The position numbers were made by a program, and so were the translations under genes. Below the pieces are notes generated by a model. The model saw only the letters and a list, made by a program, of their open reading frames with translations. It did not search any database and had not been told where the DNA came from. A stretch of 64,000 nucleotides of DNA, from assembly GCA_050613775.1 (NCBI GenBank), contig JBODTK010000011.1, forward strand, positions 62,001-126,000, written 5' to 3'. Of this stretch, positions 2,955 through 61,897 are shown in pieces; the stretch's first letter is position 1; the number at the start of each line of letters is the position of its first letter. This stretch comes from Neocallimastix sp. 'constans' (Eukaryota).

Positions 2955-2973
2955 CTTCCTTAGAACTATTCTT

Positions 2974-8938: not shown

Positions 8939-8942
8939 TCAA

Positions 8943-9797: not shown

Positions 9798-9811
9798 ATC
9801 AAAATTGTATA

Positions 9812-17960: not shown

Positions 17961-17961
17961 T

Positions 17962-18466: not shown

Positions 18467-18602
18467 TGTAAAATTATTTTAATTATTAAAAAAATGTAGT
18501 TGTTATTAACTATTTTACCGTTAATAACTAATAAATGAATTTTTTTTAAAGAGATATTAATAAGTTTTTTTTTAATAAAACAAATTTAATTTTGTATTGT
18601 TA

Positions 18603-30401: not shown

Positions 30402-31370
30402 TCTTTCTGTCAATAATAATTTATAGAATGTAAAGATGTGATTATTCCAATCACATTTTAAAATAAAAAAATTTCTTGTGTAATTCAAAAATGTAAATTA
30501 TTCTTTGATTTATAATATAATAAATAAAATAAATAAATTATATTAATTAAATTTATGAATTATATTCTTTAAGCCACAAGACAAATTTTTAATGAATAAT
30601 TTTTATAAAATTAATTCTGAGAAAATTATTGTTTTTCAATGATTTAAATCAATTGATTAAAGTTTAAAACAAAATAAATTAATAATTTATTTTGTGAAAA
30701 TTAAGTTTCAAGATTTAATCATGACTCTTTTAGCATTGTTTTTAAATTGAAATTAAATAAAAAATTTACTTATTATATTAAAATAATAAATAGATAATAA
30801 ATGTACTTAATTTAAAATATTTAGTATTTATTTTAATTAATAATTATATTTTTCTAAATTTAGCTATAGTTTATAAATTTATTATTTAATAAAATTAATT
30901 AGGATATTTTTATATTAGAATATATGTAATTTAAATAAAATAATATATTATTAATGTATTTAGGAAAAGTATAAATAGAAGATATTTTTCACATTTTTTT
31001 TCGATGTAATTGTTATTAACTATTATTAATTATAAAATATTAAGAAAGAAGATTTTTTAATAGAAAATTTAATAAAATAAAATTATATCCTAAAGTTATT
31101 GTAATCTATTTTAGTGTTTCTTTTACATAAAATAATTCTTTATTATTTTATTCATATATTATTAAATATTTATTCATATAAAATATTTATAATAAATTTA
31201 TTTATTAAGTTAAATAATTATTTTATACTTATATAATATTCTTATTGTATAAAAATTAAATATTCTTATTTATCTTAACGTTTATATTAAATATGAATAA
31301 TTCTTCTATATATTATAATATAATAAAATAGTTATAATTTTTTATATTATATTATAATTAAATATAGAGT

Positions 31371-31590
31371 TGATATTATTTATTATATTCCTATATATTA
31401 TTATTTTTATATTTATTTTATATTATTAAACTATAATTTGTATGTAAAATAATCCTAAGTAATAACGATCCTTCTCGTAATTATTAAACAGAGGTTGATT
31501 TGGTTATTTTCTAGGATATGAAAATATTAATATTAATAAAAAATAATAATACTAGTAAAAATTAATTACACATAAAAACCCCGCATATTA
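31371..31590 (+). repeat. Short solo-LTR-like repeat related to 62132-62622 and ~36490-36680
   Basis: Starts TGATA and ends cacataaaaaccccgcatatta, versus cacataaaagtcccgtatatca at 62601-62622. Confidence 0.55.
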
Positions 31591-34119: not shown

Positions 34120-34255
34120 TTTTTTTTATATGGCATGACTCATTACCTTTAGGGAATTTAATTATCTAATTTAGAATTTCTGATAGTTTTCTCCTTGACA
34201 TAATTTTATTGTCCGGCTTAGGAATTCTCTTTCAGAGAACCCTTTTGAGGGTCAC

Positions 34256-34465
34256 TTAGACTCTTAATCTATTAACAGTTATTTATTGTATTGAGTTTAT
34301 TAATATATATTATTATCAAGAATTACTGAAGAATTACCAAAGTATAATTCCATAATAATTTATATATATTTATATGAATAATTTGTGGCTTATACATTTA
34401 TTTAATATATAAAGTGTCAATATATAATAAATACATTTCAAATTTATTTAACATATATACTAACA
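34256..34465 (-). mobile_element. LTR plus tRNA-Lys-half PBS of a truncated, probably Copia, element
   Basis: Minus strand reads ...TGTTAATA|GATTAAGAGTCTAA; LTR runs from 34270 to a TAACA at ~34452-34465; no coding sequence follows. Confidence 0.6.
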
Positions 34466-34539
34466 ATTATCATTGATATTATTATTATTATTATTATTAC
34501 AATTATTGATATTATTATATTATAATTATTATTATAACT

Positions 34540-36414
34540 GACATTAGAATTTGTCAATTGTATATTGGTACTTTACCTTTCAATATATAAATTGGAGTAA
34601 TTGAATAAAGAATCAATAGTTTTTGATGAGAATAAATAAATAAGCATCTCTAGCAGTAATGATAAAGTTTGTAGAAATATTTAAAATTCAGTAATTAGAA
34701 AAATTTTCAGGATAACCAAGAAAAATATCATGTTTAGAATTATTTTCAAATTTATTTGTTTTATGATTATTAAAAAAATGCTTATAACCGAATACTTTAA
34801 TATTTTTGATATTTAAAATAGTATTAAATGTAAATAAATTTTCATCATTTGAGTAAATATTGCCAATAATATTAATATCTTTATTAATTATTTGTAATCT
34901 ATCTTTTTATTGATATTTTCCATAAATATTTATTGCCAAGATATAAGATATGATGTGTTGAGATTAGATTGTTTTTATGTTTGGCACATAATGTACATTT
35001 GATAATTTGAATTTATTACTTTTGAAATTTCCATAATATGTATTAGAACAATTGATTTTATCAGTGGTACCATTTAGAATATTATTGTTTTATCATTAGA
35101 ATTTTGAATATTTCGTTACATTTAATATTGTTTTGTAATAAAGATTATATTACCAGTAAAGTTAATGTAATCATTATTTGTGTCTGATGAATACTCTGAA
35201 TTATTTTCATTTATCTTTTAAGAGTGAAATATATTTTTGTTTTTAATATTATTTTTATTATTATTATATTTACTTTTATTTTTATTTTTATTATTTTTAT
35301 TGAATGGATTATAGTAATATTCTTCTCTAATATAATCATCTTTTTTTACATAAGAGACAGTATTTGATTTTATATTTATATTATTTCTATTTCTTGAATT
35401 GTTTGGTTTATTTTGATTGTTATTACTTTTGTATTCAGTTTGCTTGCTACTGTTTGAAATAATTAATTTTATTATTTTCATTATTATTATAAATTTGAGT
35501 GTTTAAATAACTGTTGATTCTTTTTTCATGATTTCCCATTTTTTGCAAATTATCATGAAATTCATTGAATTTTTTATATTTATAAGTTAATATAAAAATT
35601 AGATCTAATATCTTTTAATTTAGCGCGGTGTAGATGATTTTACTTTCTTCAGGTAGTTTGTTTTAATTTAATTTGTTACATTCTATGTTATATTGTTCTA
35701 ATAGATTTTTGAGTTCATAGGGATATAGAATATAATTGTTATTATTAATTTCTAAAATTTTGATTTTTTACATTAATAAATTTAATAAGGATTCTCCTGA
35801 TTTGTAGAATTGTTTTTTAAGTCTATCAGTCATTTGGTATGCAGTCCTACAACCTTTTTAATAAGCCTGAGTTTCTTAGTCGAAACTATCTGATATTATT
35901 GATTGAAATTCTTTATCATATTTTATTTGCTTGCTAGTCATGTCATCATAAACAAATTCTTTTTCAATATATTCATCATAATCTTGTACAATTAGATGAC
36001 GTTTTAATTCAATAAATCAATCTTCAAAATTTGGGGAATTTAATTTAATATCTTTTAATCAAATACTGATTTAATTAGTAAATCTTTATTGATATAATTT
36101 GAAATAAAATTTCATTTTGTGGAACATTACTCTTATCCTTATTAATGACTTAATTTTTAATCATAGTAGGGGTTGATAAAGAAGAAGCCGAACTAGCTTC
36201 GAAGATTTCTGTTTCTTGAGTTTTTTTTCTTCCCATGACTTTAAACATTAAATTTTTAATAAAATTTTATTTATTTTTTTTTATTTAATTATTTAATAAA
36301 TTAATTATACATTTATTTATTTTTAATATAAATTTAAATTTGAATATAGTAATTTTAATAAATATATAATATTATTTAAATGTATTTATGGTCTCTTTCA
36401 TATGACTCTTAATC
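34540..36414 (-). pseudogene. Degenerate Copia (Copia-A-related) with PBS at 36401-36414
   Basis: Gag relic KGCRTAYQMTDRLKKQFYKSGES, similar to Copia-A KGCKTAFEMMSRLKERYYQTGQS; integrase tail IKVFG...FENNSKHDIFLGY. Confidence 0.75.
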
Positions 36415-36737
36415 TTTCAATGAGTGAAGCTCAGATTAATTATTTTATGTTATATATTTTATTTATAATTAAATATATATATAGTTAATATTATTTATTA
36501 TATTATTATTTATAATATATTATATTCTTATATATTATTATATATATTTATATTAATCAACTATAATTTTTATATATAAATAATCCTAATAATAACCATT
36601 CTTTCTATTTTTATTTAATATTGAGAAGTTAACTTGATTATAATTTTAGGAAAACATATTAATATTAATAAAAATTTTTTAAGTTTGTCTTTATGATTAT
36701 TATTATCATTATTATATATAATAAACTTTTGACCTAG

Positions 36738-37130
36738 TTGAGAGATTTAACCAAACAATTATTTCATGTGCTAAAAAACATTACTATATTGGAGCAACTT
36801 GGTCAAATTTTTTGGAATTATGTTGTAATATATGCAAATTACCTACATAATCAGGCTCGGCACTCTGAAATCAATAATAAAACCCCAAATGAAATTTTCT
36901 TCAACAAAAAAATAAACATTAATCATATTTGAATGTTTGGTTGTATTGCCAATTATTTTATTGAAAATAATAATATAAATAAAATAAACCCCAAATCAAA
37001 AAAGGAAATTATCTGGAATACAAGTAAACTTCAAATTCATACATTGTGATGGATTTTGAAAATTATAAAATACATCATGTTTTGAGGATTCACCAGCGAA
37101 CATTTCATTTTCATGTATACTAAACAAAAC
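36738..37130 (+). pseudogene. Copia integrase fragment
   Basis: FWNYVVIYANYLHN...NNKTPNEIFF...HI*MFGC. Confidence 0.8.
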
Positions 37131-37399
37131 ATCTATAATAATTTCTTCCATTAAAATACAAAATTGTTGAATGAAAATAATTACTATAAGTACAGATTTA
37201 AATTGTCTAGATAAAAATCTTAGTCCTTATAGAAAATAATAATAATAATAATTTCATATATCAATGGATTTTATTATAATAAATTAATCCATAACAAATT
37301 GGATTATAGTAATTAAATTATTATTATGAAACTTCAAATAATTTCAGTAATAAATTAAAATATAAATTAAATCACTAAAGCAATGGAGATCATTTTTTT

Positions 37400-39669
37400 C
37401 AGGGTTGTAAGGAAGGAGAATAAATTTTTGTTATAACAATTTACTGCTCAATTTTATCAATTTTTTATTTTAGTATTTACGTCCATGATCTGATTTGAAA
37501 AACCTAATTATATAATTATCAAATATGTCGTTCAAACACTTCAAAGTTTCTAAAATTAAATTGATGCCGTCCTATTTATTTTTCATAATGAATAATCAGC
37601 CTTTTCATGCTGCTTCATCAATAAATGTTAAAATAATGCTCTATCCATTTATGGATTCATTCAAAGGAACAAATATATCAGAGTGTATAATTTCTAATTT
37701 TTAGTGGATTTCTCAATAGTTTTATTGTGTGATTTTCTCTTCATATTAACTTATTTTGCAATCTATATATATTTGTTCTTTAATATTGTGTAAATCCAAA
37801 TATTTTTTTAGATTTTAGTGATAAAAACGTCAAATTAACTTACTTTTTTCATCTAATTTCTGGACTGAATTAATTATGTCTGTTTCATTATGAAAATACA
37901 ATTCAGAAGTAATAAATATTTGATTATTGTTTTAAGTATATACACCAATAGGTTTATTTCTTTAATTAATAAATTTTAGTGCAACCTGATTTTTAAATAA
38001 TTCTGAAATAGTTTTAATATTATTTTGTATTAATATTATAATGCTTAATATAATCATTTTTACTTTTGGTGTATATAATACCTTAGATAAGTTAATATGA
38101 TGATTATTTATTTTGGGAAAACATTCATCATATCCTTTAAATTTTAGTAATAAATTAAAATATAAATTAAATCACTAAAGCAATGGAGATCAAAAGTTTA
38201 TTATATATATAATAATGATAATAAGGTTCCGTTGCCACAATTAACTCAATTTTTTCTTGTTTAAAATTTGATAATATATTAATATTATTGACTATATGTA
38301 TATATAAAACTGGAATATAAATCAATATATTAATGAATTATTTTTCATTTAGTTACTATTTTGATTTGTGTCATTATCGATATAATTTATATTATATTCG
38401 TTTTACTTGGAAATGAATTACAATTGAAAGTTAAATGAATATTGACATTTAAATATTTAATAGATTCTTCATTACATGATGCGTAATATAAACATCCAAT
38501 CGTCTTTTCAGTAGTCTTACATTGTAATAATTATTATTGTCAATGTTAACATTATTCGTTGGATTATCTGTACTACCAATACAATTCATGTTATTTGTTT
38601 GAACTAAGGGAATGATTATATTTTCTATTTTTAATATATTTTTTATTGGTTAATAAATTAAATCTACACTTAATGTATATTATGGTTATGTTTATAACAA
38701 ATATGCCAGTATAATTTATTTTTTTTATTATCATTTTTATTTGTAATAATTCTTCCATTTCTATTATATTTATTTTCGTTATGTTCTTTATAATAATTTT
38801 TAAATTTCTTATGTATTTTTCCAATATTATTACAGTTATTTGGTTTATTTTATAACTGTTGATTGAATTATTATTATTGTTATTGTACCAATCCTTTAAA
38901 TAATGCTTTCATACCTATTTTTGATTTTAAATTATTGTAATAATCTTCTGAAGATGTCCTTTAATCAATATTAACAATATTTTTATATTTGGGAAATATA
39001 TTATATATATTTTATTTTTTCTATATTTGATAAGTAAACATTAGTTTTCTTCATATTATTAAAAATATCAAATATTTTATCCAATGTCTTTATTAATTCA
39101 AATTTAATAATAATTTGATTTTAAAGAATTAATTCTTTAATCCGAAAAATTATATCTGCTTGTTGATCATATTTAGAACTTTTTTAATCTTTTTATCATT
39201 TGAGAAACCGTTTCAGAGTATTTTATTTCATTGAATTCATTTCCTTGAACATTTTTTATTATCATTAGTTTTAGTTCACCATCAATCTATATTATTATTT
39301 TTTATATTATTTTTAAATTCTCTGATGGTATCTTTTATTATTTAGTCATATATTTAATCCTGCTTTTTTAGTAGTTTGTTTGAAAATTTTGAACCAATAT
39401 CTAAAATCTTTGGTTCCAGACAACTTTTGCTATCATGTAGTTTTATATCGTCTTTTATCTCACTGTAGTAATGTACAGTATTCATATTTATTATTATTAA
39501 TTTTTTATTTAATTATATTTTATTTTAAAGTACTGAGACTCTTAATCTATTAGAATTTTAAGACTTAGTTTTTATTTTAAGTATTTTCAAGTGTTTTTAT
39601 TCTAGTACATAAAGCTAAATTACTTAATGCTATTTATCATAAAATATATAGTAATTATTATAGTTAACA
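37400..39669 (-). mobile_element. Degenerate Copia with 5' LTR (~39548-39669) and PBS (39534-39547)
   Basis: PBS GATTAAGAGTCTCA on the minus strand; gag, protease (VLYTPKVK) and integrase (LEIIHSD, LTFIDE) relics. Confidence 0.7.
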
Positions 39670-42600
39670 ATTATAATAATAATCATAATAATATTAATAA
39701 TTATAATAATTATAATTATTATAATGATAATTTTAAAAATGTTAATATTAAACCTTTAATCTTCTGAATATAATAAGGAATAATCCCATAAATCAAGCCA
39801 ATGGAAATATAATAGAATGATAATTCTTTGGGATATTATTTTTTAAATTAAGTGCGCTTAACTAATCCACGTTCTAAAAATAAAGAAGCTTCTAAAAAGA
39901 AGAAAATGAAATAAATAATATTAAACAAATTTAAGATAAATTTTAATAAGAAGAATTGTAAATTTAATATAAAGAGATATATGCTATTTAAAATATTATT
40001 TATTTTAAATTTCATTCAAAAATAATAATTATTTTATTTTAATAAGTCTATATTATTTAAATAAAATATAACAAGTTTCTAAAGAAATAAGTGAAAAATT
40101 TTATTTTTTACTATATAAGAATCTTTATATTATATCTTTAAATTTAAAAAGAGAAAAATAATAAATTAAAGATTATTATTTGAATAATTATATTTTATTT
40201 ATTTTATTTTTAGTAATTAACTATATAGTTAACATTTATATTTTTTCAATTTGATAGAATTTTTTATTATATTTATTTAATTAATTTAGTTTAATTTTAA
40301 AAAATATTTATAATATAATCATTAATTAAATAGTTTATTTTAAAATAAATTAATTTGTTTAAATTAGATAGCTTTTTCAAATTGATAAATGAATTTTGAA
40401 TCAATGCTATCATCAGTTTTAGTATCAACTAAGTATTATTAATATCATTATTATTATTTATAATGGTTTAAAAATCTATTTTCCTTAACGAAAAAACTAT
40501 ATATTTGTTTTATATATGTTTTATGGTTTACAAAATATAGAGTATTCAAATTAAAAAGTTAATAATTTCACAGAATATTTTTAATAAATTATTAAATATA
40601 TTTCAAATTAATAACATTAAAATTTGATATAAACATATCTAGCAAAAAAAGCATTAAATAATATTAATTTCAATTTCATAATCTTGATTGAAAATAATTA
40701 GTAAAAAATAAAATTTAAGATCTGAAAATTCAGATATTATATTAGAGAATAATATATAATGAAAATATATTGTTTGTATTTATATTTTATAAATAATAAT
40801 GTTAGTTTAGTAATACTAATTCTTTCCTAAATTCAATTCTTGAAAATAAATATTTTATATCATTATTAATTAATTAAATTTAAATAAATATAAATGATAT
40901 TAAAACATTACGAAAATTTAATTTAATAGGAAACTATATTATTGCGTAATAACATAGTTTTTATTTCTTTTATTCTTTGGTTATTAAATAATATAAAATT
41001 TAAAGGTTTTGAACAAGAATTTATATTTTGAACAGAATAACAATTAAATAACTGTGATATTATAAAGATATTTATATAAATTATTATATATTTATCAAAA
41101 TTGTTTATAAATCTATATTAATTTTTATTAAAACTAATCAGTGATTACTTTAGATTACCATATTTTATAAGAAAATTGAAATATTGCAATATTAATGACA
41201 ATATTTGATCCTGAAATATCAACAAAATAAAATAAATAACAGATCAATAAACATCAATAAATTTTATAATATTATATTTAATAAAAAATTATAAATCACA
41301 TTCAAATAATTGGAAAATTGAAATTATTTAACCATAAGAATAACTAACATTAAAGAGTATTGTGAAATACGCTTATATTTTTTAAGTAGTTTAATACTGA
41401 TTATTAATATATTAAATATAATTAAATAAATAATAATACGAAAATAATTTAATAATTAAATTAATGACTATTATTAAAAATAATTTAAGTATTATTTAAT
41501 AAAATATATAATAATTTTTAATAATCATTTATGCAAATACTTATTATAAATATAAAAATAATTTATTATTTATAAAAGAATATTAATGTTTTTTTTAAAG
41601 CAAATTTTGAAAAGAAAGTAATTTGTTACTTACTAGTAAATTAATTATAAATTAAACATTTCTTTTAAATTTTAAATTTTATTAATGACACCACAGAAAA
41701 TGGAAATATAGAATTCATTATATTTTAAATTAAATTTATTTTATTCTCTATTTTTACTATGTTTAATTAAATTAATTTTAATATGAAAAATTTAAAATAC
41801 TTTATGTATCCTTTATTTTAGTAAAACGTATTAAATTTTATATTATTGGATATTAATTATTAGAAATAATTTTATGTTCTTGAATTTCCAACTAGTATTT
41901 TAAAATATTTATAATCTACAAAAATATCAAACAAAATATAAATCAAAAAATAAATCACATATATATAATAAATAGAGAAAGAATATTTTTATAATATATA
42001 AATATACTTTAATAATGAAATTTATTTATTAAAAATATTCTCTACAAGTAATATATATTAAAATAAAAAGAATTAACATTGAATGGATTTTTAATTTTTA
42101 CTTCTAAAAATTAATTTAATATTAAGGGACTATTAATTTATATAATATTTCTAAGTTACATTTTAAATATTTAAATATATTTAAAAAAATAAATATTTCA
42201 ACAATTTTAATTAAAATTATATTTTATATTATATATAATAATAATAAATAAATTATATATTATTTAAATTCTTTGATTATTTAATTCATTTTAGGTTTTA
42301 ATATTTAATATTTATCTAATTATATTTAATAATTATAAATTCATAAGAATTATATTATTATTCTTATACATTATTGTAACCAATGACTTGATTTTTCAAC
42401 ATACTTTTTTCATATCTATTTCATACCTTTATTAATATATAAACTTTATAAATGATAAGATGTTTTAAAATTTATATTATATTATTATTTTATTTTTTGA
42501 ATATAGTATATATCCACTTTTTAAATCGATAATTATGAATATAATTGATTTGAATATTGAAAACATAATTTTTGATTTACATTCGAATTCAAATGTTTAA

Positions 42601-45600
42601 AGATTCTAAAGAAAATTTTCATTTATGTTAATGTTATTTCATTTTTATCTTATTAAAGTTACCAATAGTTATAAAAATAATTTATTTCTTTATCTTATTT
42701 AAGTTACTAATAATAATTGAATGAATTTCGACTAATTATAAGAGAAAGAATATAAAAGTCATACTTAAGATATTTGTGATCAAGTGGAAAGTTATTGAAT
42801 TAATTGAAATTAATCTTGATTAATAAAAAAATAGATAAATTATTGATAAATGTATTTAAAAACTTTGATACAAAAAAATTTATCAAAAAAGTAATTTCTA
42901 AGTGGGATTTAATTTTTCAAAAGATTAAATTTGTTGTAAATATAAAACATATATAACATAATTATATATGTTATATATTTACAACAATAAATTTAAACAT
43001 ATGAATACTTTTCTAAATTGATCCTTTTGATTAAATATGTAGAAGGTGTATATATTTTAATTTTATTAAATCTAGACCCAAACATATTGAACATATTTAG
43101 CAAATAATAAAAGTTTTGAATTATTAACTATGGCCTCTTAAGTAAAATGTTCAATTTTTGGTTCATTGAATTTCTAGTTTTAATTAAAATTAATCCTATG
43201 AAATTGAAATTAATAATTATACTATTCACTAAATTCTTTAATTAACTATTTTAATAATGCTATATTTATTTTTGAACAAGAATTTCTTATTATTTCTTAA
43301 TATTATTAAAACGTTTTAAAAAATTTTATTATGAAGTAAGTATTGAATAAAATATAAATAAATGTAAAATTTTAATTATTTTATATATATTAAAATATAA
43401 TCAAAAAATTCATAAATAAATATAATATTTATTCGCATTGTAGATTAAAAACTTAAATTCCAATAATACTTAAAATAGAAAACGGTAGAGCATCAATACA
43501 TTACATTATTTGATTTTTAATTTCATTATACTCATTATTTTATATATACAAAGATGAAATATATGATTTTAAAATATAAAATGAAATAATAACATAAAGA
43601 TTAATATATTTATATATATTTATGTTTGTAACTAAGCTAATAAAATTTCAATATATTTAAAAATTCTATATTTTAAAATTATACCATTATTTATTACATC
43701 TTCATATTTAATACTGAAGATAATAAAAATTTTTTCTAGATTGTAAAATTATTAATTTAAATAAAAAAATAAAAATAATTATTAATGAAACTTCATTAAT
43801 ACTTATAATAATAATTTTAAATTATATAATATTTAAATATAACTAATATATTAGAAGATTAAGCTGTTTATAATTGTATATATTATAATAATGATATAAG
43901 ACATTATAAACAACACATATTAATATTTTAAATCATTAAAATTACTTTAATAATAGTATTACCATTAAAATATAGTAATTATTATTAAACTAAAAGTTCA
44001 AAATAAATAAAGTATCAAAGAACTATAAAAATTAGTATATGTATAAAACACTTTAATAAAAATAATTAAACGAAAATGATTTAATTCTTAATATATATTA
44101 ATTAATTTATGTTGATAACCAAATCATTTTCATTTAATTATTTTTATTAATTGAATTTAAAGTACAATAAATATATATAATTAGTTAATATAGTAATTAA
44201 ATTATTTTAAGAATACTAATGGATTACATTTTTATACTTTGATTATTCTTAAAGAAGAATCAAAATAAAAACAATTATTATTTAAATAAATTTAAATTAA
44301 ATAATAAATTAATGATTATAAAGTTAAATAATATTATGAATAATTCTTTTCCAAACTCTATAATAATATTTAACATAAATTAAAAATTGAATTGGTAATT
44401 TCTTTAATATTTGTAAGATTAATTCAATAAAAATAAATTTTAATGCATTTTCAAATTAATTATTTTAACTAATTTTTCTATTATATATAATCCTATAAAA
44501 ATTATATTAAAAACAAAATAATAATATTTTATTAAAATGATTTATTATTATAAAAATTATTATTTAGTTATAATTACGGTTTAATTTTATAATTCATATT
44601 TAATAATTTAGTTAAGAAAGGTATTACATAAGCATTATTTTATTTTTGAATTTATATCTAACAAATTATTGTCTTTAATTAAACATAATTATTATTAAAA
44701 TATATCTTAATTATCTTTAAACTATAATTATTTTTAATTGATTATTTTCATACATAATTAATACTCATTTTATTAATTTATGATTAATTTAATAGAAACT
44801 TTCTTATAAAATTAAACAATGAATAAACTTTTATTCATTAATATAACTTTGTTCTTTTATTAAATAAGATACAAGATATAGTTTATTTCAATAAAATATT
44901 ATATAATGATATAAATTAATAATAATAATATAATTAAAACAAAAATTAATCAATAAATAATTTATTTATCTATTATTTAAAAATTAGGTTAATATATTAT
45001 AATCATAAACATTTTATCTTTATAATTTATTATTTATTATTTATATTTAAGAAATAAATAATAAATAATAATAGATAAGAATAAATTATATTGACTTTTT
45101 ATACAATATGGAGTATTATAATCTTAAATATTAATCATAATATAAAGAATAAATAATAAAAGAAAATAGATATATTATTGTAAAAATAATTGTAAAAATC
45201 ATAAAAATTACATAGATCGTCATGTAAATATAACAATTATTCCTAAAAGATTAATAAGCAAACTGTATTTGATATAATTCAAAGAGATATTGTTCTTTCT
45301 TGGAGAATGGCAATTATAATATTTAAAGTTTAGTTTTTAATAAGAATTTTTAAGTGAAAGTAATTAATTTTAATAAAATAATAATATTCTATTTAATCCA
45401 TAATTTTTTTAATATCTTCAAACAATAATTTTGAACATAGTTTGGCATACAAATACATATATCCTAATCAAGTGACTTATATTAATATATGAACAACATA
45501 GCTAAGATATTCAATTAATATTATAAAACTACACTGTTTATGAACGATAAAACTAGAGCATGAAATGCAGTGAAACAACATCGAATAACATGCTCATAAT

Positions 45601-47149
45601 GCTGTAAACATGCACTGAATGCATCTATATTGAACATACATACAATATTAAATATTTTATTATTTTATTTATTATTCTATTTATTATTTTTAATTTAATA
45701 TTTTAATTTATTATTTTTTTAAAATAATTGGTGATATTTTAAAAAAAGTATAGATATATTTATTTCAATATCTAATATAAAAGAATCTATAGATTTACAT
45801 GTATAAATAAAAACAAATCAACCAACTAAAAATTATATATCCTATTCTTGAATTTTTTTTTTTGTAAATAAAATATATTTTACATATTTTTGTGATTATT
45901 GAGTTCAGTTATTAAAAAAAAGTGATTTTTATCACTTTTTTTAAACAATATTTATATAATAATAATAAAAATAATAATAAATAAATATATATATCATTTT
46001 TATTATTATTATTAGTAACTTTTTAAAGATATATGAATGTTAAATGATTCTTGATTTTTATATAGTAATAATTAAAAATCAAGTTCAAAATAATATCATA
46101 AAATTCCAAAAATAAAAAAGAAATTAATAAAATTTTAATAAATAAATTAATTGTATTAATATATAATTTCATTCATTTATATTGTATTTTCAATTTGATT
46201 ATTTTTTTATTTAGTTTAAATCAATTTTATATAAATTATTTAAAAATTAAATTAAATTTATATTAAATATTTAATCTAAATATACATTAATGTTGTATTT
46301 AATAAAAAACAAAACGAAGAACACAAAAAGAAATAGAATATAGAATATTCAAATATTTTATAAAAAACAATTCTTCCATATTAAATATTTATTTTTGGAG
46401 TTCCTTTTTTTTTAATAATAATACAAATTCCATAGTCTATATTGAAACAAATATGATGATTAAATTCATTTTTTTTTTTTAATAATTAAAAATCATAATA
46501 ATAAATATTTATATTAAATTTTAATAATACATAAAAAAAATAACAATTTCATAAATAAAATAAATATGTATAGTTGTATTTTTTTTAATTCAATTTTTTA
46601 TTTCACAATAATTTAATTAATTTTACAATTAGTATGTTATTTTTTTATTTAAATATTAGTATTTTTAATAATTTTTATTGTGTTCTAAATATTTTGCTTC
46701 TAAAATCATCATTCAATTAGAGAATTAGGATATAATATGATAAAAATAACCTTTTAAAGGATAATTTCAGTTAGGATAAGAAAAAATTTTTTCGAAAATT
46801 TTTTAATAAACAAAATAAAATTAATAATCTCATAAAAAATATATATATTATAAAATTAATTTTTATTATAAATTATTTAGTATAATAAAATATTATTTAA
46901 TGTACATTAAATAAAAATAGAATTTTCAAATTATAAACCACCATTTTTCCTTCATATTTTTATTTTTTGAAAAATTTTTGAATTTTGAATTTTTATTTCA
47001 AAAAATTTTTATTCTATTTTTATTATATTTTATTTTAATCTTATTTATTTTATTCATATAGTTAATCTGTGGTTTGTTGATTATTTTATTTTGAATTATT
47101 TCATTTTTGTTGTCTTTATTTATAATTCCATTCGAATAAAATAGTTATG

Positions 47150-48245
47150 TCTTCTTTATTTGAATATATTTATTGTCCTTATTAAAATTTGTTTTTGAGA
47201 TTGCCAAGCAATTCTTTTTATCAAATTCATATATAACTTTCACTCTTTTGCACCATCTTATTTGTCTTATATTACTTGACTTTTTGTATTTAAATAATCC
47301 TAATAAAGGCTTATGATCAGTGTATAATTGAGTTTCATATTTATTTCTAGAAATGTAATATTTAAATTTAGTAATGCAATAATAAACAGCAGTTCCTTCT
47401 AAATCAGTTATACTGTAATTTAATTCCGCTTTATTTAAAGACCTTCCTTACAAAGTAAATGGGTTTTTTTATGTTGTCCTCTTCGTCTTTATAAAGAATA
47501 CTTCAATACAGTCTTTATAGATGTCGGTTCTAATAATAAATTGTTTATCAAAATTTTGAAAGTGTATAATAGTGGCAGATATTAAAACTTCTTTTAGTTT
47601 ATTGAAACTGCCTTCATTGTTCATCAGTCCAAATAAAAGGTTTTTTTTTAAAATTTTATAAAGTGGAGCAGCAGTCATTGCAAAATTATTTAGTGTATTT
47701 TGTTGATTGTCTAAAATTTATCTGAATTAATTTTTAAATCAAATTTTAAAGAATTAATATTTTAATAGGACCAATATATTTAATAAAACAAGGAACATAT
47801 TCAGACTCTTGATCAGCTAATATAGGAACAATAACATCCAAAGTATTATTAGAATTGAGATGACATAAGGTTTTAGATTTAGTATGATTAAAGAAATCAT
47901 TTATTCCAATAGTTTTAAAGATAATTAATAAATCAAAATAAATACTGTCATGATTAATAATACAAATATCAACAATAAAAGATTAAGTGTTGATTGTAAA
48001 AAATAAACAAACAGCAATAGCATCAGTGATAACATCATCATCTAATGCTTCCTAAATACGACCATGACACATAATATCAACGGTTTCATATTCTCCAGGA
48101 AGACTATTAAATTGTCTTAATTTTAAATCTTTACATAATTCAGTCAAAGTTTTGGACAAATATCTAATATTATAGCAAATGAAATATTAAATGGAGTATT
48201 AACCGAATCTTCAGCTAAATTATGGGACAATCTCAATTTTCTTAG
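47150..48245 (-). pseudogene. Gypsy remnant (gag/PR linker and RNase H, RT deleted)
   Basis: FDKQFIIRTD, YSITDLEGTAVY, YTDHKPL; similar to 15300-15713. Confidence 0.8.
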
Positions 48246-48472
48246 AATAATGTATTAAAATGTATATTTAGTATTTTGTATCTAAACACTGCCACAATAT
48301 TTAACATTCCCCCTACATTAGAAATTACATTGAAATTTTTTTTTTTTTTTTTTTTAAGATATTAATAAATGTCATCAGTAAATATAATATGATATAATAT
48401 AAAAATTAGTAATATTAATATAGATAAGAATAGAGTTTTAAGAATATATGAATACAAATATATATTTTTCTT

Positions 48473-50107
48473 TTAATCGAATATGTATTTAGAATAGATG
48501 GACATTTTTGGTCCGGAAATACATTTAGTAAGTGGATCTGCTGCCATTTTATTGGACTCGATCTTTTCCAAATTTATTTTGTTTTTTGTTATATTTTCGT
48601 AAATGAATTTGTACTTTATGTCCATATGTTTTATTCTGCCTCTGGCATTTTCAATTTCAACCATAGCTTTGCATGCATTATTATCTACAAAGATCTTTAT
48701 ATTTAATTCTTTGTTAGTAATTTCTTTTATGATTTTTCTTAATTTTAATGCATGTTTGGTGCATTCAATGAGACTAACACATTCTGCTTCGGCAGAAGAT
48801 AATGTAACACATTTTTGTGTTTGTGATTTCCAAACTATTGGAGCATTTCCCAAGAGGAATATAAAACCACTTGTTGATCTTCTTGTTGATTCATCACCTC
48901 CCCAGTCTGAGTCAGAATATCCAACTAAAGTTTCATTACCATTATAGTAAATTGACTTTTCTTTTGTTGACTTTAAGTATTGCAAGGTCATCATAGCAGA
49001 ATCATAATCAGCTTTCGTTGGCTTTTCACAGTTTCTGGCAAGTTGATTTACCGAGAATGCTATACCCGGTCTCGTTTTAACAGCGATATAAAGTAATGCT
49101 CCTAAAAGTGATTTGTAACTGGTTACATCTACCAACCTGGAATTTTCCCTTTGTTCCATAGTTATCCTATGGCATGGAGTATAGATTCTTTTAGTTTTAT
49201 GCATCATGTATTTTTTGACGATTTTATCAATATAATCCTTTTGATTAATTTTATAGCCCTTTTTAGCTTTCATAATATTAATACCAATGATTTTATTAGC
49301 AATTGATTCTTTAGATATTTTGTATTTTCTTTTAATTTTGTTGATAATTTCTTTAATTTCATCTTCATTACCGGTTAATAATATGTCATCAACGTATAAA
49401 TTTAAAATTTCATATAAATTATGATTCTTATTATACTTACAAAATATACATTCGTCAGTATCTAATTGATGTAATCCTATACTTTTTAGAAATTTTGTAA
49501 TTTCCTTATTCCAAGCTCTTCCGCTTTGTTTTAAGCCGTACAAAGCTTTATTTAATAACCAGTATTTCTCTTTATTAAAATTCTTGTCTCCTTCTGGAAT
49601 TTTTACAAATATTTTTTCTTTCAATTCAGCATTTAGGTATGCTGCTTTTATATCGATTTGCATTATATTCCAATTCATTATAGATGCTATGGCAATAGTA
49701 ATTCTTAAACTATCAGATTGTAAAGTCGGAGCATATGTGTCAATGAAATCCTTCCCTTTAATTTGTTTGAAGCCTCTGATTACAAACCTGGCTTTTCTTA
49801 TTCCGTCATCTTTAATCGTGAATACCCATGTACCATCAAGTATATTTGCATCTTTAGGTATTTCACTACTGTCAACAACTGTTGTGACATGATTATCATA
49901 AATATTTTTAAATTCTTTAGTTATCGCTATTTTCCATTTTTCACGATCAGCTGATTCTAACGCTTGTTTATATGTTTGAGGAACATTTGTTTTAACATAT
50001 AATATATTATTCTCTTTATTATTTATTGATAATTTTCCATCATCCGACTTTTCAACTGGAATATGTAAATCATTTTTGGTATCTTCGTTGTGATCCACTT
50101 TATGCAA
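48473..50107 (-). CDS. pol: Copia-A reverse transcriptase + RNase H (open 544-aa segment)
   Basis: KARFVIRGF, QIDIKAAYLNA, KALYGLKQSGRAWN, YVDD, GYSDSDWGG, RRSTSGF, ADPLTK. Confidence 0.95.
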   Translation of the reverse strand: MHKVDHNEDTKNDLHIPVEKSDDGKLSINNKENNILYVKTNVPQTYKQALESADREKWKIAITKEFKNIYDNHVTTVVDSSEIPKDANILDGTWVFTIKDDGIRKARFVIRGFKQIKGKDFIDTYAPTLQSDSLRITIAIASIMNWNIMQIDIKAAYLNAELKEKIFVKIPEGDKNFNKEKYWLLNKALYGLKQSGRAWNKEITKFLKSIGLHQLDTDECIFCKYNKNHNLYEILNLYVDDILLTGNEDEIKEIINKIKRKYKISKESIANKIIGINIMKAKKGYKINQKDYIDKIVKKYMMHKTKRIYTPCHRITMEQRENSRLVDVTSYKSLLGALLYIAVKTRPGIAFSVNQLARNCEKPTKADYDSAMMTLQYLKSTKEKSIYYNGNETLVGYSDSDWGGDESTRRSTSGFIFLLGNAPIVWKSQTQKCVTLSSAEAECVSLIECTKHALKLRKIIKEITNKELNIKIFVDNNACKAMVEIENARGRIKHMDIKYKFIYENITKNKINLEKIESNKMAADPLTKCISGPKMSIYSKYIFD

Positions 50108-50307
50108 TTGTCCTGTTTTATCAGTATTAATTATGCTTGACGACCTTTCCCCCTCAATTGATGAAGTGGATGTTTCCAGTAGTGAACTAATAATTTTATT
50201 AGTAAAAAAATAAGTATTAATAGTACCTGGTAGATTTTCAAAAAAATAGACATCCCTAGCAGTGATGATAGAGTTAGTGTCTAAATCTAAAATCTGGGTA
50301 CAAGATT

Positions 50308-50841
50308 TTATATACCTTGCTTTGCGTTATTTTCGTATTTATCCTTTTTATAATTATTGAAGAACGCTACTTTGCATCCGAAAACTTTTAGGTTTGAAAT
50401 ATCTGACAATTTATTGAAGAAGACATCGTCCGGAACTAAATTATTATTTCCTTGATGAGGATTTAAGTTGTATAATTTTGCAGCTACAACGATAGCCTCA
50501 TCCCAGAAACAAAGAGGAAGTTTTGCCCAATTTAATAACGTTATGGAGCAATTATTTAATGTTTGGTTTAAGCGTTCCGCTTTACCATTTTGTTCATGTG
50601 CGCCAGCTTCAGAATGGATAAATTTTATACCATTTTCATGAACAAAATTAGAAAAATTGTTGTTTATATATTCGAGACCTCTATCAGACTTCAGTATTTT
50701 AATATGGTATCCATAGACATTTTTCATTAATTTGTAGAAATCCACAAAATTTCCTAAGACTTCATTTTTAGCTTTAATGGGATATACCCAACATTTTCTC
50801 GAATAATCGTCTAAAAAGGTTAACATAAAATTTGAATCCAC
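50308..50841 (-). pseudogene. pol: Copia-A integrase core
   Basis: FLDDYSR, KSDRGLEY, QNGKAERLN, LKVFGC; frameshifts on both sides. Confidence 0.95.
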
Positions 50842-51063
50842 TGTTCGATATTTTGAGCTTGCCTACGACATCTGTGTGGACCAATTCCAAAGGATTTGTT
50901 GTTTAATTTGTTGACGTGTTGAACTTTGCCCTTTTCATTTTACTAATTTTGCATTGTTTACAAATGTGCTTATTTTGGGTATGATCCTTAACATAACTTT
51001 CTAATTCCTTATTTACAAAATGGCCAAGTCTGGCATGCCAAAGGTTATGTTCAATATGATTTA

Positions 51064-52788
51064 CTAGCAATCTATACCCTCAACATAATTTACATCATTG
51101 TTAGTTTGTAAATCTTTTGATTTCATTACAAATAAACCTTCATTGTTTGAGTTGAGATTAATAATATATTTATTATTCTTTGTGATAGTTAGTACCTTCT
51201 TATTTCTAATTTTTCTAATGTTTAGTTCAAAACCCATATTTAATATATGGTTTGTCGAAATTAAATTATTTTTTATATTCGATGCGAAATAAACATTTGG
51301 TATGGAAAAAAACTTATTTTTATATTCCCCTTTGTGCATTCCAACATATTTTATAATTTCAGTAGTTCCATTAGCATAAGTAATTGTTCTTTCTTCAATT
51401 TCCTTAACATTTGTTAATTTATTACAGTCTTTTATTAAATTGATAGCAGTTCCACTATCAATAATCCAAGAGGTAGAGGATATATTCGGATTTTTGGAGG
51501 TATTTATATCTTCGTATTTTCTCTTGTTGTTGTGGCCTTTTTTGAAATCATTTTTTGAGAGGGAACAAGAGACATAATTAGAATTAAAATTTAATGATTT
51601 TATATCATCTGAATCAGAATCAGAGTGTTGATTAGTGTGTTTTTTAATTTTATTTTCAACATTACATGATTTAAATATTTTATTATATTTTTTAGTTTTT
51701 AACTTTAATTTTCTTTTTCTACCTTTATTTATCTTATTATTACTTGAATTGCTTTGGTTGGTTTTAATTTTATAGCAATTCTTAGTTATATGTCCATATT
51801 TTTCACATATGTAACAATAGTTGTCTTCTATATGGACCTTTTCTCTTTGATTTTTATTTTTATCAAAGTTGAAGTTGTATGGTAACTTACCCTTTTGGAC
51901 TCTGTTTATATTGTTATTATATTTATCGAAATTATTATTATCAGTTAAATTCTTTATTGTTACCATCAGCGAATTTAATTTGTACATTTTTTCTTTAAAT
52001 TCGTCATAAGAATTGCAATCAACCAAATAGACAAATAAAGGATGTATTCTGGTATTTATAAGTTCTTTAAAAATGTGAGTTATTTTATAAATATCATCTA
52101 GTGATTCTTTATTTAATTTATCACATTCTGTTTTTCTAAGGTTATATAATTCGTCCATTTTATGTATATAGCTTAAAAAATCATTATCTTCAATTTTTAA
52201 GCCTTTAATTTGTTTATCGATATTATCAATATAGGATTGACCTGTTTGATAATATCTTTCTTTTAATCTACTCATCATTTCAAACGCTGTTTTACATCCT
52301 TTTAGTACATCATTTCCCTCTTCATCAAGACTAGATTCAATTATTGACTGGGTTTTATTATCCTTTTTAATTTCCAGTTGATTCATTGATTTGGTTTCCT
52401 TTTGGACTTCAATGAAATTTATTAAATCCGTTGAAATAAGGTGATGTACTAAAGGTTTATACCATTGTTGAAAATTAATAGAAGTTAAATGAAAGTTTTT
52501 AATGTGAAAAGGAACATTATTTGTTCCTTCATCACCTTTAGTATTTACATTGATACTATTATAGTCTTCATTATTACTTCTTATTTTCATATTTTCAGTG
52601 GTTTTTATAAATGCGTTTGTTATTTATTCAAGATTATTATGATTATTGTTGTTTATAGCTTCTAAAAGTTTTTGTAAACCTTTATTTACCAGTTCAGAAT
52701 TATCCAAGGTTTCTTTTTCTCTTGAATTATTACTGGTACTAGCTATGTTGTTTGATGAGTTAGAGGACTCATTATTTTTAGAATCCAT
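51064..52788 (-). pseudogene. gag: Copia-A gag-protease
   Basis: ATG at 52788, in-frame TAA before ORF 51064-52590; zinc knuckle CYICEKYGHITKNC; protease WIIDSGTAINL. Confidence 0.92.
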
Positions 52789-53278
52789 GTTTTATGTTTA
52801 TTTAATTTATAAAATTTAAATTTTGATTAATAATTTATTAATTTTAATTGTTTTAAAATTTTAAATCCTTTGTTTAAATTTTAATCAAAATTTTTAATTT
52901 TTAAATTTATAATGTAAATTTCAATATTTAAATTTTGAAATTAATTTAGTGATTTCAAAGTAATCACTTTTGTAAAACTAATTATTTAACCAAATAATAC
53001 AATAATACCTTACATAGAGTCGTTGAGACTTTTAATCTATTAAGTTTAGGTTTGGAATACACAATAAATATTAATAAAAATTCTTAATATAATTTCAGAT
53101 GAACTTATGTTTTTATTTGTTTACTTTTTAATTTATTTATTTCTTACTGCTAAGATTATTATTTTTTTTTTTTTTTATAGTTATATAAATTTATATTTAC
53201 AATGTAATTGATAATGTATTAAAATGTATATTTAGTATTTTGTATCTAAACACTGCCACAATATTTAACAATTTTAAA

Positions 53279-54940
53279 TGTATTTATATTTTCCCTTTAT
53301 TATATTATAATTACTATTTCTATTTATTTAAACATATATTCAATATAAAATAAACAAAAAGAAATCTAAAATTAAATAAAGTTATAAAATAATTATAGCT
53401 AATACAATAAACTTTTTATTTCAATTTGTTTCAACTCAAATTGAAAAAGTGCTTATTTATTATTTATTTATTATTCTTTTATTGTCAATATTATTAATTA
53501 TATTTTTACTATTTAATATTATGATTATTAAACAAACTAAAATTAAGCTAAACTAAAATTATTAAAATATTTTATTACTAAATTTTAAATTATTTAGAAA
53601 TTAATTTTATATTTCTAAATTTATCGATCATAAAAATTATTTATTATTAAATTGAATAAATCAATTCATTTCATAAATTAATATTATTTTACATAATTTA
53701 ATGTATTAGCATTATTTTGTAAACGTGAATTAAATAATTTAATGTACAAAATAAATTAATATATTAAAAATATTGATCATATCTTTACAATCTCGCCTTT
53801 TAAGTCGAACTACTGTGAGAATCATTTCTTGAGGGAAGTTCTATTACAAAGGTTTGATATTTATTTCTTCAATGTAATCATTTACATTATCATTCTCAAT
53901 AGATTCTTGATCCTTTGTTCTTGTTTTATTTTTCTTATATTTTTTCTAAAATGTTCTTGAATCAATTGTTTATCAGAAATTTGATCTTCATCTTTCCAGG
54001 AGTCTTCATTTGATCCTTTCCAACAGATAAGAAAACGATTCTTTCCTTTATTAGCTTCATATTAACTATTTTATCTGGAATCATATTAAAATTATTTGTA
54101 AATTTAAACTCTTTCTTCTATTTACATTTCTATCTTAAAATTTGTTTTCATAATAAGGATCAAGAAACATAAAAATTGGATGGCAATGTATATTATTAGG
54201 TAGTTTAACTTTGTACTCTAAAGGACTAACCTTTTCAATTATTTCAAAAGGACCTGTTAATTGTTCGGCAAGTTTTCTTTTAACATTTTTTGTAGTAGAT
54301 CCTTTAAGTAACCAAACTTTTTTACCTACTTCGAAATTAGGGGAAGGAAGTCATTTCAAATCAGTATATTTTTTATAAGTTTTCTTAGATTCTAAGTTTC
54401 TTTTTAAAAATTCAATGTTTATATTAATATCTAATATCCTTTTTTCAACTCTACTTGGTCTTTCTAAGGATGGAATCTCAGGACTAAACTTAGGATTAAA
54501 ACCATAGTTTGCGAAGAATGGTGATTGATATATTGATTAATGTAAAGTATTGTTAAAAGCAAATTCAGCGAAATGTAGTAAATCGACCCAATTATTTTGT
54601 CTTTCATTTATGAAAAAAAGAAGATATTGTTCCAATATTCTGTTCACCCTCTCAGTTTGACCATAAGTCTCCTGATGGTTGGAGGTAGAAAGAGAATGAG
54701 CAATATCAAGAAGATTACATAATCGATTCCAAAATTTAGATGTAAATTGCGATCCTTTATAAGAAATAATAAAATAAGGGAACCATGTAACTTAAAAATA
54801 TTCAAGACAAAAGCATCAGGAGCAAATGAAGCAGTACGAAGACGACGAAAAGGAATAAAATGAGCCAATTTAGTCAAACGATCAACAACAACCATTATCG
54901 TGGTCATATCTTTGGACTTAGGTAATTCAACAATAAAATA
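53279..54940 (-). mobile_element. 3' end of a chromodomain-bearing Gypsy (chromovirus): integrase relic, PPT, 3' LTR 53279-53789
   Basis: VVVDRLTKLAHFIP; TGPFEIIEKVSPLEYKVKLP..HCHPIF; chromo-like RFLICWKGSNEDSWKDEDQI; purine tract AAAAGGCGAGA before TGTAAAG. Confidence 0.88.
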
Positions 54941-55713
54941 TTAATAAATTTGATAATAATATTTCAATGTATGAATTAGTTATAATTTAAATGAATTTAT
55001 AATTATCAATAATTATAAAGACTAAGAAATATAATTAATAAATAATTAATATTTCTTACATTTTGGTAAAGAATGAATTAATTACCTTTATTTTGTTATA
55101 AAATATTATTAATAATTCTTTACTTACTTTCCTATATTCTTGATAACCTAAACCAAATTATAAAAATAATTTATTTTGATATAAATTAAATTTAACTTTG
55201 TAAATAATATTAAATCAATCCTAATTAATTAATTTATTATATTATTAAACATAATTTTATTAAAATTCTATTGTAAATATTAAAAATTATATACTGATAA
55301 AGTACGCCTATAGGTTCAAGTTCTCTTGTTGGGAGAAGTTTTATTTAGGTTGTTATTTAATTATAAATTTTTATTTATATATTATTTAAAAATAATTGTA
55401 AAATTAATACATGTATTTAATTATTATCTCGAAAATATAAAAGAATTATAAAATCAATTTGGCATAAAACTGTGCAAAGAATAATTATTAAGAATTATTC
55501 TTGTTTTCATATTTGTAATTCATAATAAACTATTTAATTAATAAATTCTCTTAGAATAACTATTAAGTATTTAAAGTATTTAATATAAAGTATAAAATAA
55601 AATATAAAATATTAAAATAAAATATTCATAAAATATTAATAAAAATATAAATTTATTATAATTAATAAAATATTAATATAAAATAATAATTATTAAAAAT
55701 AATTAAAAATATA

Positions 55714-58604
55714 TGTTGAAAATAAAGTTTAATATTATTCCTATTTTATTATTAATTATATAGTTATACAAATTTATATATAGTAAAATTTATTATGTAT
55801 GTAAATATGGCTTGCTACATTATAAATATTTATGTAATACATTTATGATTCATGTAATGTTATTGTTATGATATATTAAAATGTATATCATATTATTTTT
55901 AAGAAATGAAGTTAATAAAGTAATTTTAAATTGATCAATTTCCATTTAATTTTCAAAAGATTAAGAGTCTCAATTTGACTCATACTACTTATTAATTACC
56001 ATATGTAAATCGCTTTTATATATTTAAATCGTCGTCTTTATATTTAACTTTGCCCAAAAAAACCGTTTTCCTAAACTATAAAAATTTTACATAAAATTTA
56101 TTTATAAAACCATTATTAACATTAAAATGGAAGAACCACGCAATAGAGGTACCAAAACAATCCTCGGAGAACCCAATTCAAATTTCAAAATTTGGGATGA
56201 TGAACTTTACAATCTTTTAAGTGAATTAGATCTTGAACATCATATCGAAAAAGAAGTCCTTAAAAGAATTGATAAAAGTACAATTATCCCTTCAAACTTA
56301 AATAAATATCGTCCAACAAAAGGAGATAAAACTAAAGTTTATGCTTTGGATACTAAAGATGAAGACATTAAAAATGACATTAAAGTTAAAAATATTATTT
56401 TGAATAGTATTAATAACGAACATAAATTAAGTTTAAATTGTAAGGGTGACACAGCGTATGATATTTACAATACATTCTGTGAAACCTATACTCACACAAT
56501 TAATGAAAGAAAAGAAATTTTAGAAAATGAATTAAATGAATTATTCTTTGAAGAAAATGAAAAAGGAATGTCTTTGTTTATTGCTTCCATGAATAATAAA
56601 TTTGCTGAATTAAGAAACCTAGGAGTTGAATAGACTGACAGAGAAAAATTTGACTATTTATTCAACGCACTTCCCGAAAAATTAATATTATTATCAAATT
56701 TACTCAATTATAGCAACAACTGGAAAAAATGTTGTACAAATATCATTGAAACCCATCAGCATGCAAAGCAATTGTATATCAAAAGAAATAAAAAATTAGG
56801 GAATAATAACAAATCAACAAATAAATCTGCAAGTTCGAATACAGAAGCAAACTATTCCCAACAAACAAACAACAAGAAAAACATAAGATGCCAAATCTGT
56901 AAGAAAAAGGGACATACTGCGAATAAGTGTAAATAACAGATACTTCAGATCTAATGAAGATAAATCAAGTAATAGCAATGACAATAACAATAATTATAAG
57001 AAAAACAATAGTAAAAATAATAATAAATATAACAGAAAGCATAAAACTAATGGAGGACAATCAAATATTGCTATGAAAGATGAAGAATTAAATCCTGAAC
57101 AATATGTTAACTTCTCACTTGACTATGACACTGATATCGAATTAACAAAACAAGTAAATTACGCCAAAGAACTTAATAAAGAATCTAATAATGGACATTA
57201 GATTCAGGAGCGTCATATCATATGACACACAACCTTGGATGTTTACAAAACATTCGTAAACATCAAGAAATTATATCTTTCGCTGATGGAGGGACTGTGA
57301 AATCATGATATATAGGTACATTTATAGGATATATTAATGAAAGTAAAATTATACTAAAAAATGTACTATATATTCCAAGTTTTAAAAGAAGTTTAATGTC
57401 TATCCATAAATTATGTAACCAATATTTTAAAATCTTATTTTACAACCATAATAACAAAAACAAAGTTTCAATATTGGACAAAAATGGTAATAAAATATGT
57501 TCGGTAAATTCAACAAACTACAATATATATAAAATCTGGTCCTTTAAATATAAAATAAACTTTAAAGAAAAATTAAATAAGTATACTGCTTGTGATAGTA
57601 TACAAAACGTAGAAAATGAAGATGTCTTAGAACTTTGGCATAGAAGACTAGGACATTTTAACATTGATAAAATAAAGGACAGATTACCGAATATAAAAAT
57701 AAATAATAAGTGTAAAGTATGCTCAGAAGCAAAACTTAGAAACTTCCCTTATTATTTATCTCAAAACAAAACAAAAGAAATATTTGAAATGATTCATATG
57801 GATACTGTTCAATATTCTGATGAATCATTATATGGTAATAAATATTTCTTTACAATAATGGACGATTACTCCAGATATGGGTGGGTTTTCTGTGTAAAAT
57901 CAAAAACAGATATCTTTCCAACCTTTCTAAAATGGTATAATACAATTAAAAATATTTTTAACAAAAACATAAAATATATAAAATCGGACATAGGAACAGA
58001 ATTTTATAATTATCAATTTGATGACTTTTGTATAAAGAATGGGATTATACAATTATCAAGTATTCCAAAAAACCCACAACAAAATGGAAAGGCAGAGCGT
58101 TTTCAACAAACTCTTATTCATGCTTCAAGAGCACTTTTACGTGACGCCCGTTTAAATTACAGATTTTGGGAAGACGCTATTAAAACAGCAAATTATATCC
58201 ATAATAGACTTCCACACAGAGGTATAAACAATAAAATACCTTATGAGATTTTATATGAAAATAAAGGCAAAAAGGTCGATTATAATAAATTAAAGGTTTT
58301 CGGTTGTCAAGTATTCTTTTATGTACCAAAACAATATAGAAAAAAGTTTGAAAATTCTACACATCCCGGAATTTTCATAGGATATAATATCAATCCAACA
58401 GCATTCATAATATATGATAAAATAAACAATAAAGTTATATTAGCTAAAGCTGTTGAATTTTTCGAAGATATCCCCGGATGTACAAAGGCCACTTCTTCTA
58501 TTCCAGAAATTGAGGACTTTACTAATGACAACGAAAATGATAATAATAGAGTAGACTTTCATAATTACTCTTATAGAGATAATAATGATATTAATAATAA
58601 TAAT

Positions 58605-58653
<49 letters not shown>

Positions 58654-61600: not shown

Positions 61601-61897
61601 TTGCTAACAAAATTTTAAAATAATATCAAACTTTAGGAGGGATGTTGAAAATAAAGTTTAATATTATTCCTATTTTATTATTAATTATATAGTTATACAA
61701 ATTTATATATAGTAAAATTTATTAAGTAAATTTATGTATGTAAATATGGCTTGCTACATTATAAATATTTATGTAATACATTTATGATTCATGTAATGTT
61801 ATCATTATAATATATTAAAATGTATATCATATTATTTTTAAGAAATGAAGTTAATAAAGTAATTTTAAATTGATCAATTTTCATTTAATTTTCAAAA
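55714..61897 (+). mobile_element. Ty1/Copia element B, structurally complete, coding region disrupted
   Basis: LTRs 55714-55958 and 61643-61897 (about 4 substitutions and one 10-bp indel); 5-bp TSD ATATA; PBS 55959-55972; PPT AGGAGGGA 61635-61642. Confidence 0.97.
56127..61618 (+). pseudogene. gag-pol: Copia-B gag-pol
   Basis: gag 56127-; knuckle CQICKKKGHTANKC; DSGASYHM; WHRRLGH; DDYSRY, SDIGTEF, QQNGKAER; LYGLKQSGRAWN, YVDD; ADGFTK; several stops and frameshifts. Confidence 0.95.

Follow-up and report, generated by a model that had tools for sequence, protein, structure and literature searches.

Putative primer-binding sites for a tRNA-Lys 5' half in a clade of gut-fungal Copia elements

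Results

Copia elements and 14-nt sites in the window

The stretch of Neocallimastix sp. 'constans' DNA analysed here (64,000 nucleotides, referred to as the window) has a GC content of 19.5%. RIP was rejected as the source of this low value, the TpA/ApT ratio being 0.92 with no RIP signature.

Copia-B lies on the forward strand. Its 5' LTR (55714..55958, 245 nt) starts with TG, ends with CAAAA rather than CA, and forms a direct repeat with positions 61643-61897. Flush with the LTR stands the 14-nt motif GATTAAGAGTCTCA (55959..55972, +), the complement of positions 27-40 of tRNA-Lys(CTT). Just 3' of this putative primer-binding site (PBS), a GACTC box (55977..55981, +) can pair with the GAGTC of the PBS. 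The gag-protease-integrase-RT-RNaseH region (56127..61618, +) was recognized with Pfam (PF14223, PF22936, PF13976, PF00665, PF25597 and PF07727) and is interrupted by stops and frameshifts. It is followed by the purine tract and 3' LTR (61635..61897, +, of which the LTR occupies 61643-61897) and then by the target duplication ATATA. The two LTRs differ by 4 mismatches and one 10-nt indel, and ATATA is present on both outer flanks; given the surrounding A-run, any length from 5 to 8 nt would fit the duplication. Paired LTRs, a purine tract and a short target duplication are Ty1/Copia traits, all of them found in Copia-B.

Copia-A lies on the reverse strand. Its 5' LTR (53038..53270, 233 nt, TG ... 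TA) is followed without a gap by the PBS GATTAAAAGTCTCA (53024..53037, -), which carries a UUU-type letter and has a GACTC box next to it. The gag-pol region (48473..52788, -), identified by Pfam, is spread over three frames. Only a 60-nt stump of the 3' LTR remains behind a purine tract (48247..48306, -), 100% identical to the start of the 5' LTR. In both Copia-A and Copia-B the Pfam scan gave the Ty1/Copia domain order gag-protease-integrase-RT-RNaseH with an RVT_2-type RT, and in both the coding sequence is broken.

Three further sites were found on the reverse strand. Element D is a decayed Copia with the PBS GATTAAGAGTCTCA (39534..39547, -) ahead of a decayed gag to integrase region (37386..39429, -; nearest protein P0029, tblastn E 2e-99). 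Element E, decayed as well, has the PBS GATTAAGAGTCATA (36401..36414, -) ahead of internally deleted gag and integrase pieces (34579..36055, -; nearest protein P0001 by tblastn). Site F is the PBS-like GATTAAGAGTCTAA (34256..34269, -) with GACCC next to it; no gag-pol homology was detected behind it at E<=0.01, and about 150 nt past it an inverted integrase fragment begins. Two positions deviate in site E and one in site F. A search for LTR pairs around sites D, E and F found none.

The coordinates, strands and letters of all five motifs were confirmed in the 64-kb window, as given by a first, sequence-only reading of this DNA. Its description of their surroundings held equally: two of the five sites (B and A) are flush with the 5' LTR where an LTR is defined, four head Copia gag-pol homology on the same strand (B and A by Pfam, D and E by tblastn), and the flanking sequences are unrelated between the five sites (local alignment scores 18-70). 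The five sites therefore belong to separate families. That reading had also called them five independent PBSs, which stands for the families and fails for their origins, because the nearest proteins share one clade.

When 100 shuffles of the window were searched with the degenerate motif GATTAARAGTCWMA, 0.01 matches were expected against 4 exact ones observed; with the 14-mer and at most two mismatches, 6 matches were found in the window against 0.49 expected. Since both patterns were taken from these very sites, the odds are post hoc; what decides is the position of the sites. The sixth of the latter matches (47801-47814) is surrounded by gypsy-like sequence and was rejected as a PBS. A conventional TGG-type PBS, named in the sequence-only reading as evidence that would count against it, proved absent, with no TGG within 20 nt at the defined LTR boundary of either Copia-A or Copia-B. 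In addition, the window contains a gag remnant (11990-12550) whose 700 nt of upstream sequence are without the site.

The 14-mer matches the anticodon arm of tRNA-Lys

The 14-mer is the exact reverse complement of nucleotides 27-40 of a tRNA-Lys(CTT) gene (ARAGORN, standard positions) in L004; of 120 viral-contig loci that hold this reverse complement, this one is such a gene. The match to positions 27-40 proposed from the sequence alone was thus reproduced on a viral-contig proxy; the tRNA-Lys genes of such contigs may differ from those of the host, and the 64-kb window contains no tRNA gene. A 15-nt pattern joining the LTR end to the PBS, with a 12-nt core inside, matched 123 viral-contig loci, 85 of which sit within tRNA-Lys genes and none of which has Copia homology. 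A search for Copia relatives in viral contigs gave 26 candidates, none confirmed.

Standard position 40 is the end point of the Lys core in 86 Lys(CTT) genes and 24 Lys(TTT) genes of the loci retrieved, and likewise of the iMet-type half site in 12 Met(CAT) genes. The register of the Lys site is therefore that of the known iMet half-tRNA PBS, in agreement with the geometry first suggested for it. As in half-tRNA-primed Copia elements, the sites of Copia-A and Copia-B directly adjoin the 5' LTR, are complementary to the anticodon arm up to nucleotide 40, and lack TGG.

The site recurs in one clade

By RT, the window elements are nearest to metagenome proteins, at 38-91% identity, and to Pecoramyces ruminantium gene models; the host is thus likely to be an anaerobic gut fungus. 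An Atlas search returned generic RVT_2 clusters only. Copia-A and Copia-B fell into one clade with support of 1.00 and 0.995 on RT (FastTree) and 100/98 on integrase (IQ-TREE). Segments of at least 150 (RT), 120 (integrase) and 330 (RT-RNaseH) residues were required; the RT tree with support 1.00 took in 134 of 154 DNA matches, while the integrase tree and the tree with support 0.995 were built on hand-picked subsets of loci. The clade includes the P. ruminantium models P0197 and P0211 plus six loci. Elements D and E are absent from the trees; their nearest proteins, P0029 and P0001, fall in this clade.

The exact 11-nt Lys core was present on the sense strand in 4 of 155 Copia-bearing loci. 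This sample is small: 75 loci, evidently on stray contigs of eukaryotes, come from prokaryote assemblies, and 80 are metagenome loci, the best 80 of 559 matches in 3 of the 64 parts of the collection. Three of the four core-bearing loci (L122, L168 and L196) belong to the six loci of the clade. In L122 and L196, a purine tract and a TG...CA LTR are followed by the Lys site without spacer. The site is not visible in the other three: the contigs of L121 and L167 begin within coding sequence, and the 863 nt upstream of L123 lack the Lys site and also the 5' LTR of this element. No other PBS type was seen in any clade member. A motif search of the five assemblies behind L121, L122, L167, L168 and L177 gave 6 matches, 3 of them already known, and no further PBS. 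It is likely that the Lys site was inherited across the clade rather than gained five times.

The UUU-type site of Copia-A and L177

The fourth core-bearing locus, L177, is an unrelated Copia element whose 14-mer is identical to the UUU-type site of Copia-A. In both the integrase tree and the RT tree with support 0.995 it lies outside the clade of Copia-A and Copia-B, at weak or long-branch positions, and it is placed among iMet-half elements. With 55 nt of contig ahead of the site, its LTR is not visible.

A true switch of Copia-A to the Lys(UUU) isoacceptor appears doubtful. The A of its site does face anticodon position 34, and the identical 14-mer of L177 indicates that a UUU form can exist. 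However, the switch would rest on one G-to-A difference in a single, frameshifted copy within DNA of 19.5% GC, and sites E and F carry changes too. Moreover, the box downstream of the Copia-A site is still GACTC, the partner of G, and the same box accompanies the G form in L196.

A small box downstream of the site

Of 9 Lys-type elements, 5 have GAC(T/C)C no more than 11 nt past the PBS, where 0.03 would be expected (a post hoc comparison); none of 17 iMet-half sites has it. Three partners are conceivable for this box: the PBS itself (in a hairpin), the D arm of the tRNA and its variable loop. Six duplex tests were run with the proxy tRNAs of L004, and their p values are uncorrected. Pairing with the Lys D arm gave a combined p of 0.005, driven by L122 (p 0.003) and L168 (p 0.01); the five window sites gave p values of 0.11-0.93 against this proxy. 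The own-PBS hairpin test gave p 0.024 and pairing with tRNA positions 41-59 gave p 0.05. In the crossed control, the Lys elements gave p 0.79 against the Met D arm; the Met elements scored alike against the Met (p 0.030) and Lys (p 0.035) D arms, so that this control is not clean.

Discussion

The 14-mers behind the 5' LTRs of several Copia families of one clade are quite probably PBSs at which a tRNA-Lys 5' half, cleaved behind nucleotide 40, acts as primer. Their place, complementarity, register and recurrence were observed; binding, cutting and priming form the inferred part of the model. By analogy with Drosophila copia, Ty5 and the plant half-tRNA lineages, the anticodon arm of tRNA-Lys would open and form 14 base pairs with the element RNA, and a nuclease would generate the 3' end of the primer at nucleotide 40. 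The RT would then elongate the cut tRNA directly into U5, which would explain why the site has neither spacer nor TGG. Cleavage in the anticodon stem to give a half-tRNA primer has precedents (PMC6317226, PMC5371799).

Drosophila copia and yeast Ty5 are primed by half-tRNA-iMet, whose 3' end is internal and falls within the anticodon region (PMC5371799). The Lys site resembles theirs in ending at tRNA position 40; in contrast, their primer is tRNA-iMet and its use was studied experimentally, whereas priming is inferred for the window elements. According to PMC6317226, the plant Copia lineages Osser, Bryco and Gymco-II have half tRNA-Met sites and Bianca a half tRNA-Ile site, and in plants the half-tRNA PBS is a lineage trait, restricted to Copia, in which the tRNA species can change. 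These lineages are like the gut-fungal clade in the lineage-wide half-tRNA PBS, which is putative in the latter, and differ from it in tRNA and host. PMC4139406 describes an internal tRNA-Arg site in LTR elements of Candida. Like the window elements, these are fungal LTR elements whose tRNA site is internal and not of the Met type, but they differ by the use of Arg and by their Saccharomycotina hosts.

The closest parallel is the fungal Copia FunCo1: Donnart et al. 2017 (PMC5445492) print its PBS as ATTAAGAGTCT and describe it as the complement of a stretch inside tRNA-Lys. This core is exact in B, D and F and has one change in A and E. The sequence-only reading had taken Lys for an unreported half-tRNA primer, a claim that has to be dropped. 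Because the core was already printed for FunCo1, the Lys site is a further example and not a new mechanism; the accessible text devotes one sentence to the site and proposes no cleavage mechanism.

The clade of Copia-A and Copia-B might be a far-flung branch of FunCo1, with the Lys site shared by descent or transfer with elements of Pezizomycotina. We consider this unlikely. The two share an identical 11-nt core, an internal tRNA-Lys complement and fungal hosts. Nevertheless, FunCo1 was reported almost only from Pezizomycotina, despite a search of all MycoCosm assemblies and NCBI (with a strict cut-off, E 1e-75), and the window does not have the features of such a host: its GC content is very low without a RIP signature, and Pecoramyces models lie in the clade. 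Furthermore, among the 120 best matches of each RT search, Pezizomycotina contributed a single named protein, P0117, in an Erysiphales-only group, and the named nearest outgroups of the clade were arthropod proteins, at a weak support of 0.70; these match rankings are distorted by AT-driven composition, and few of the matches are named. With no named Pezizomycotina protein close and a host outside the range of FunCo1, the evidence points weakly to a lineage separate from FunCo1.

What is new is therefore a gut-fungal clade beyond the reported range of FunCo1, one unrelated Copia with a UUU-type site, and the small downstream box. No report of a Lys site in Neocallimastigomycota was found in the literature searched, which left out most subscription papers and Repbase. 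These observations widen the range of the Lys anticodon-arm PBS beyond Pezizomycotina, to a fungal lineage that diverged early, a result of modest importance. In practice, the Lys site provides a PBS marker for the annotation of gut-fungal Copia elements that is missed by 3'-end tRNA matching. If the clade is unrelated to FunCo1, primer switching would have occurred repeatedly while the cut register stayed the same, a point relevant to which nuclease makes half-tRNA primers.

Tentatively, and at somewhat less than even chances, the observations can be read together: priming by a tRNA-Lys half would have arisen more than once (in FunCo1, the gut-fungal clade and the L177 lineage), the site may be bipartite, and primer swaps would be easy and repeated. 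The tRNA-Lys 5' half also contains the D arm, to which the second stretch of such a bipartite site may pair, as the results for L122 and L168 suggest. If this joint reading is true, the Copia RT would take any tRNA cut at position 40.

Fungal GalEa elements carry the motifs KSRLVI, QTDD and CQPEA and, instead of a PBS, a conserved hairpin site. The corresponding RT motifs are KARFVI, YVDD and TRPGI in Copia-A and KARVVA, YVDD and TRPDI in Copia-B, and GalEa membership of both was rejected on these motifs. That the 14-mer is a structural hairpin or self-priming signal of the GalEa kind, its likeness to a tRNA being incidental, is very improbable. In its favour, a GACTC further downstream offers a pairing partner for the GAGTC within the site in Copia-B, L168 and L196 (combined p 0.024). 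Against it, 6 of 9 elements keep the 14-mer although their hairpin is mismatched or absent, the RT motifs differ, and all 14 bases fit the tRNA-Lys arm exactly in the known half-tRNA register.

Sequences flanking the primer-binding site

The Lys site is the probable 14-nt primer-binding site (PBS), complementary to nucleotides 27-40 of tRNA-Lys. Both LTRs of Copia-B end in CAAAA (55954-55958 and 61893-61897). The PBS is preceded by TAATA in Copia-A (53038-53042), in the decayed Copia D (39548-39552) and in F, a PBS-like site without detected gag (34270-34274), and by TGAAA in the decayed Copia E (36415-36419). The canonical CA is absent directly before the PBS in all of these. Among the Lys-site loci fetched from other assemblies and metagenomes, AA is likewise found at this position in L168 and L177, and CA in L122 and L196. 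TA precedes 3 of the 17 sites matching half tRNA-iMet. Non-CA ends may be accepted by the integrase of half-tRNA elements.

Closely 3' of the PBS, a GAC(T/C)C box was observed in five of nine Lys-type elements: Copia-B (55977-55981), Copia-A (53017-53021), F (34249-34253), L196 (3881-3885) and L168 (22-26).

Upstream of site E, an AT-rich stretch has a 74% copy at 31331-31542. The likeness ends about 35 nt before the PBS, which the copy does not contain.

Related Copia elements

The remnant of a Copia gag at 11990-12550 belongs to the gut-fungal clade that holds Copia-A and Copia-B; it is fused straight to the final RNaseH residues, a junction that is a large internal deletion. The Lys site was not found in the 700 nt upstream of this gag remnant.

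Outside the window, a Lys site of the UUU type, the letter form seen in Copia-A, is present at L177:56-69, in a Copia of 35% GC placed outside the gut-fungal clade. Clade members were also encountered in archaeal and bacterial metagenome-assembled genomes (contigs L121, L122, L123, L167 and L168); these are evidently eukaryotic repeats mis-binned into prokaryote genomes. P0177, a protein from such a contig, bears a bacterial name in NCBI.

Surroundings of the elements

Copia-A keeps only the first 60 nt of its 3' LTR, beyond which lies what is left of a gypsy-type RNaseH (47148-48246). The sequence directly upstream of its 5' LTR (53267-53790) has an inverted copy at 17961-18478 (86%); it is another repeat, in or next to which Copia-A sits. 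In Copia-B, the integrase-RT interval holds a long Asn-rich stretch (58500-59560), and the Asn content of its relatives is also 11-21%.

A repeat of 1.2-1.3 kb with internal tandem arrays of 54/41 nt occurs in three copies (683-1894, 7623-8939 and 9811-11112), two of which flank Ty3/gypsy coding sequence (2294-6354). These repeats are probably long gypsy LTRs.
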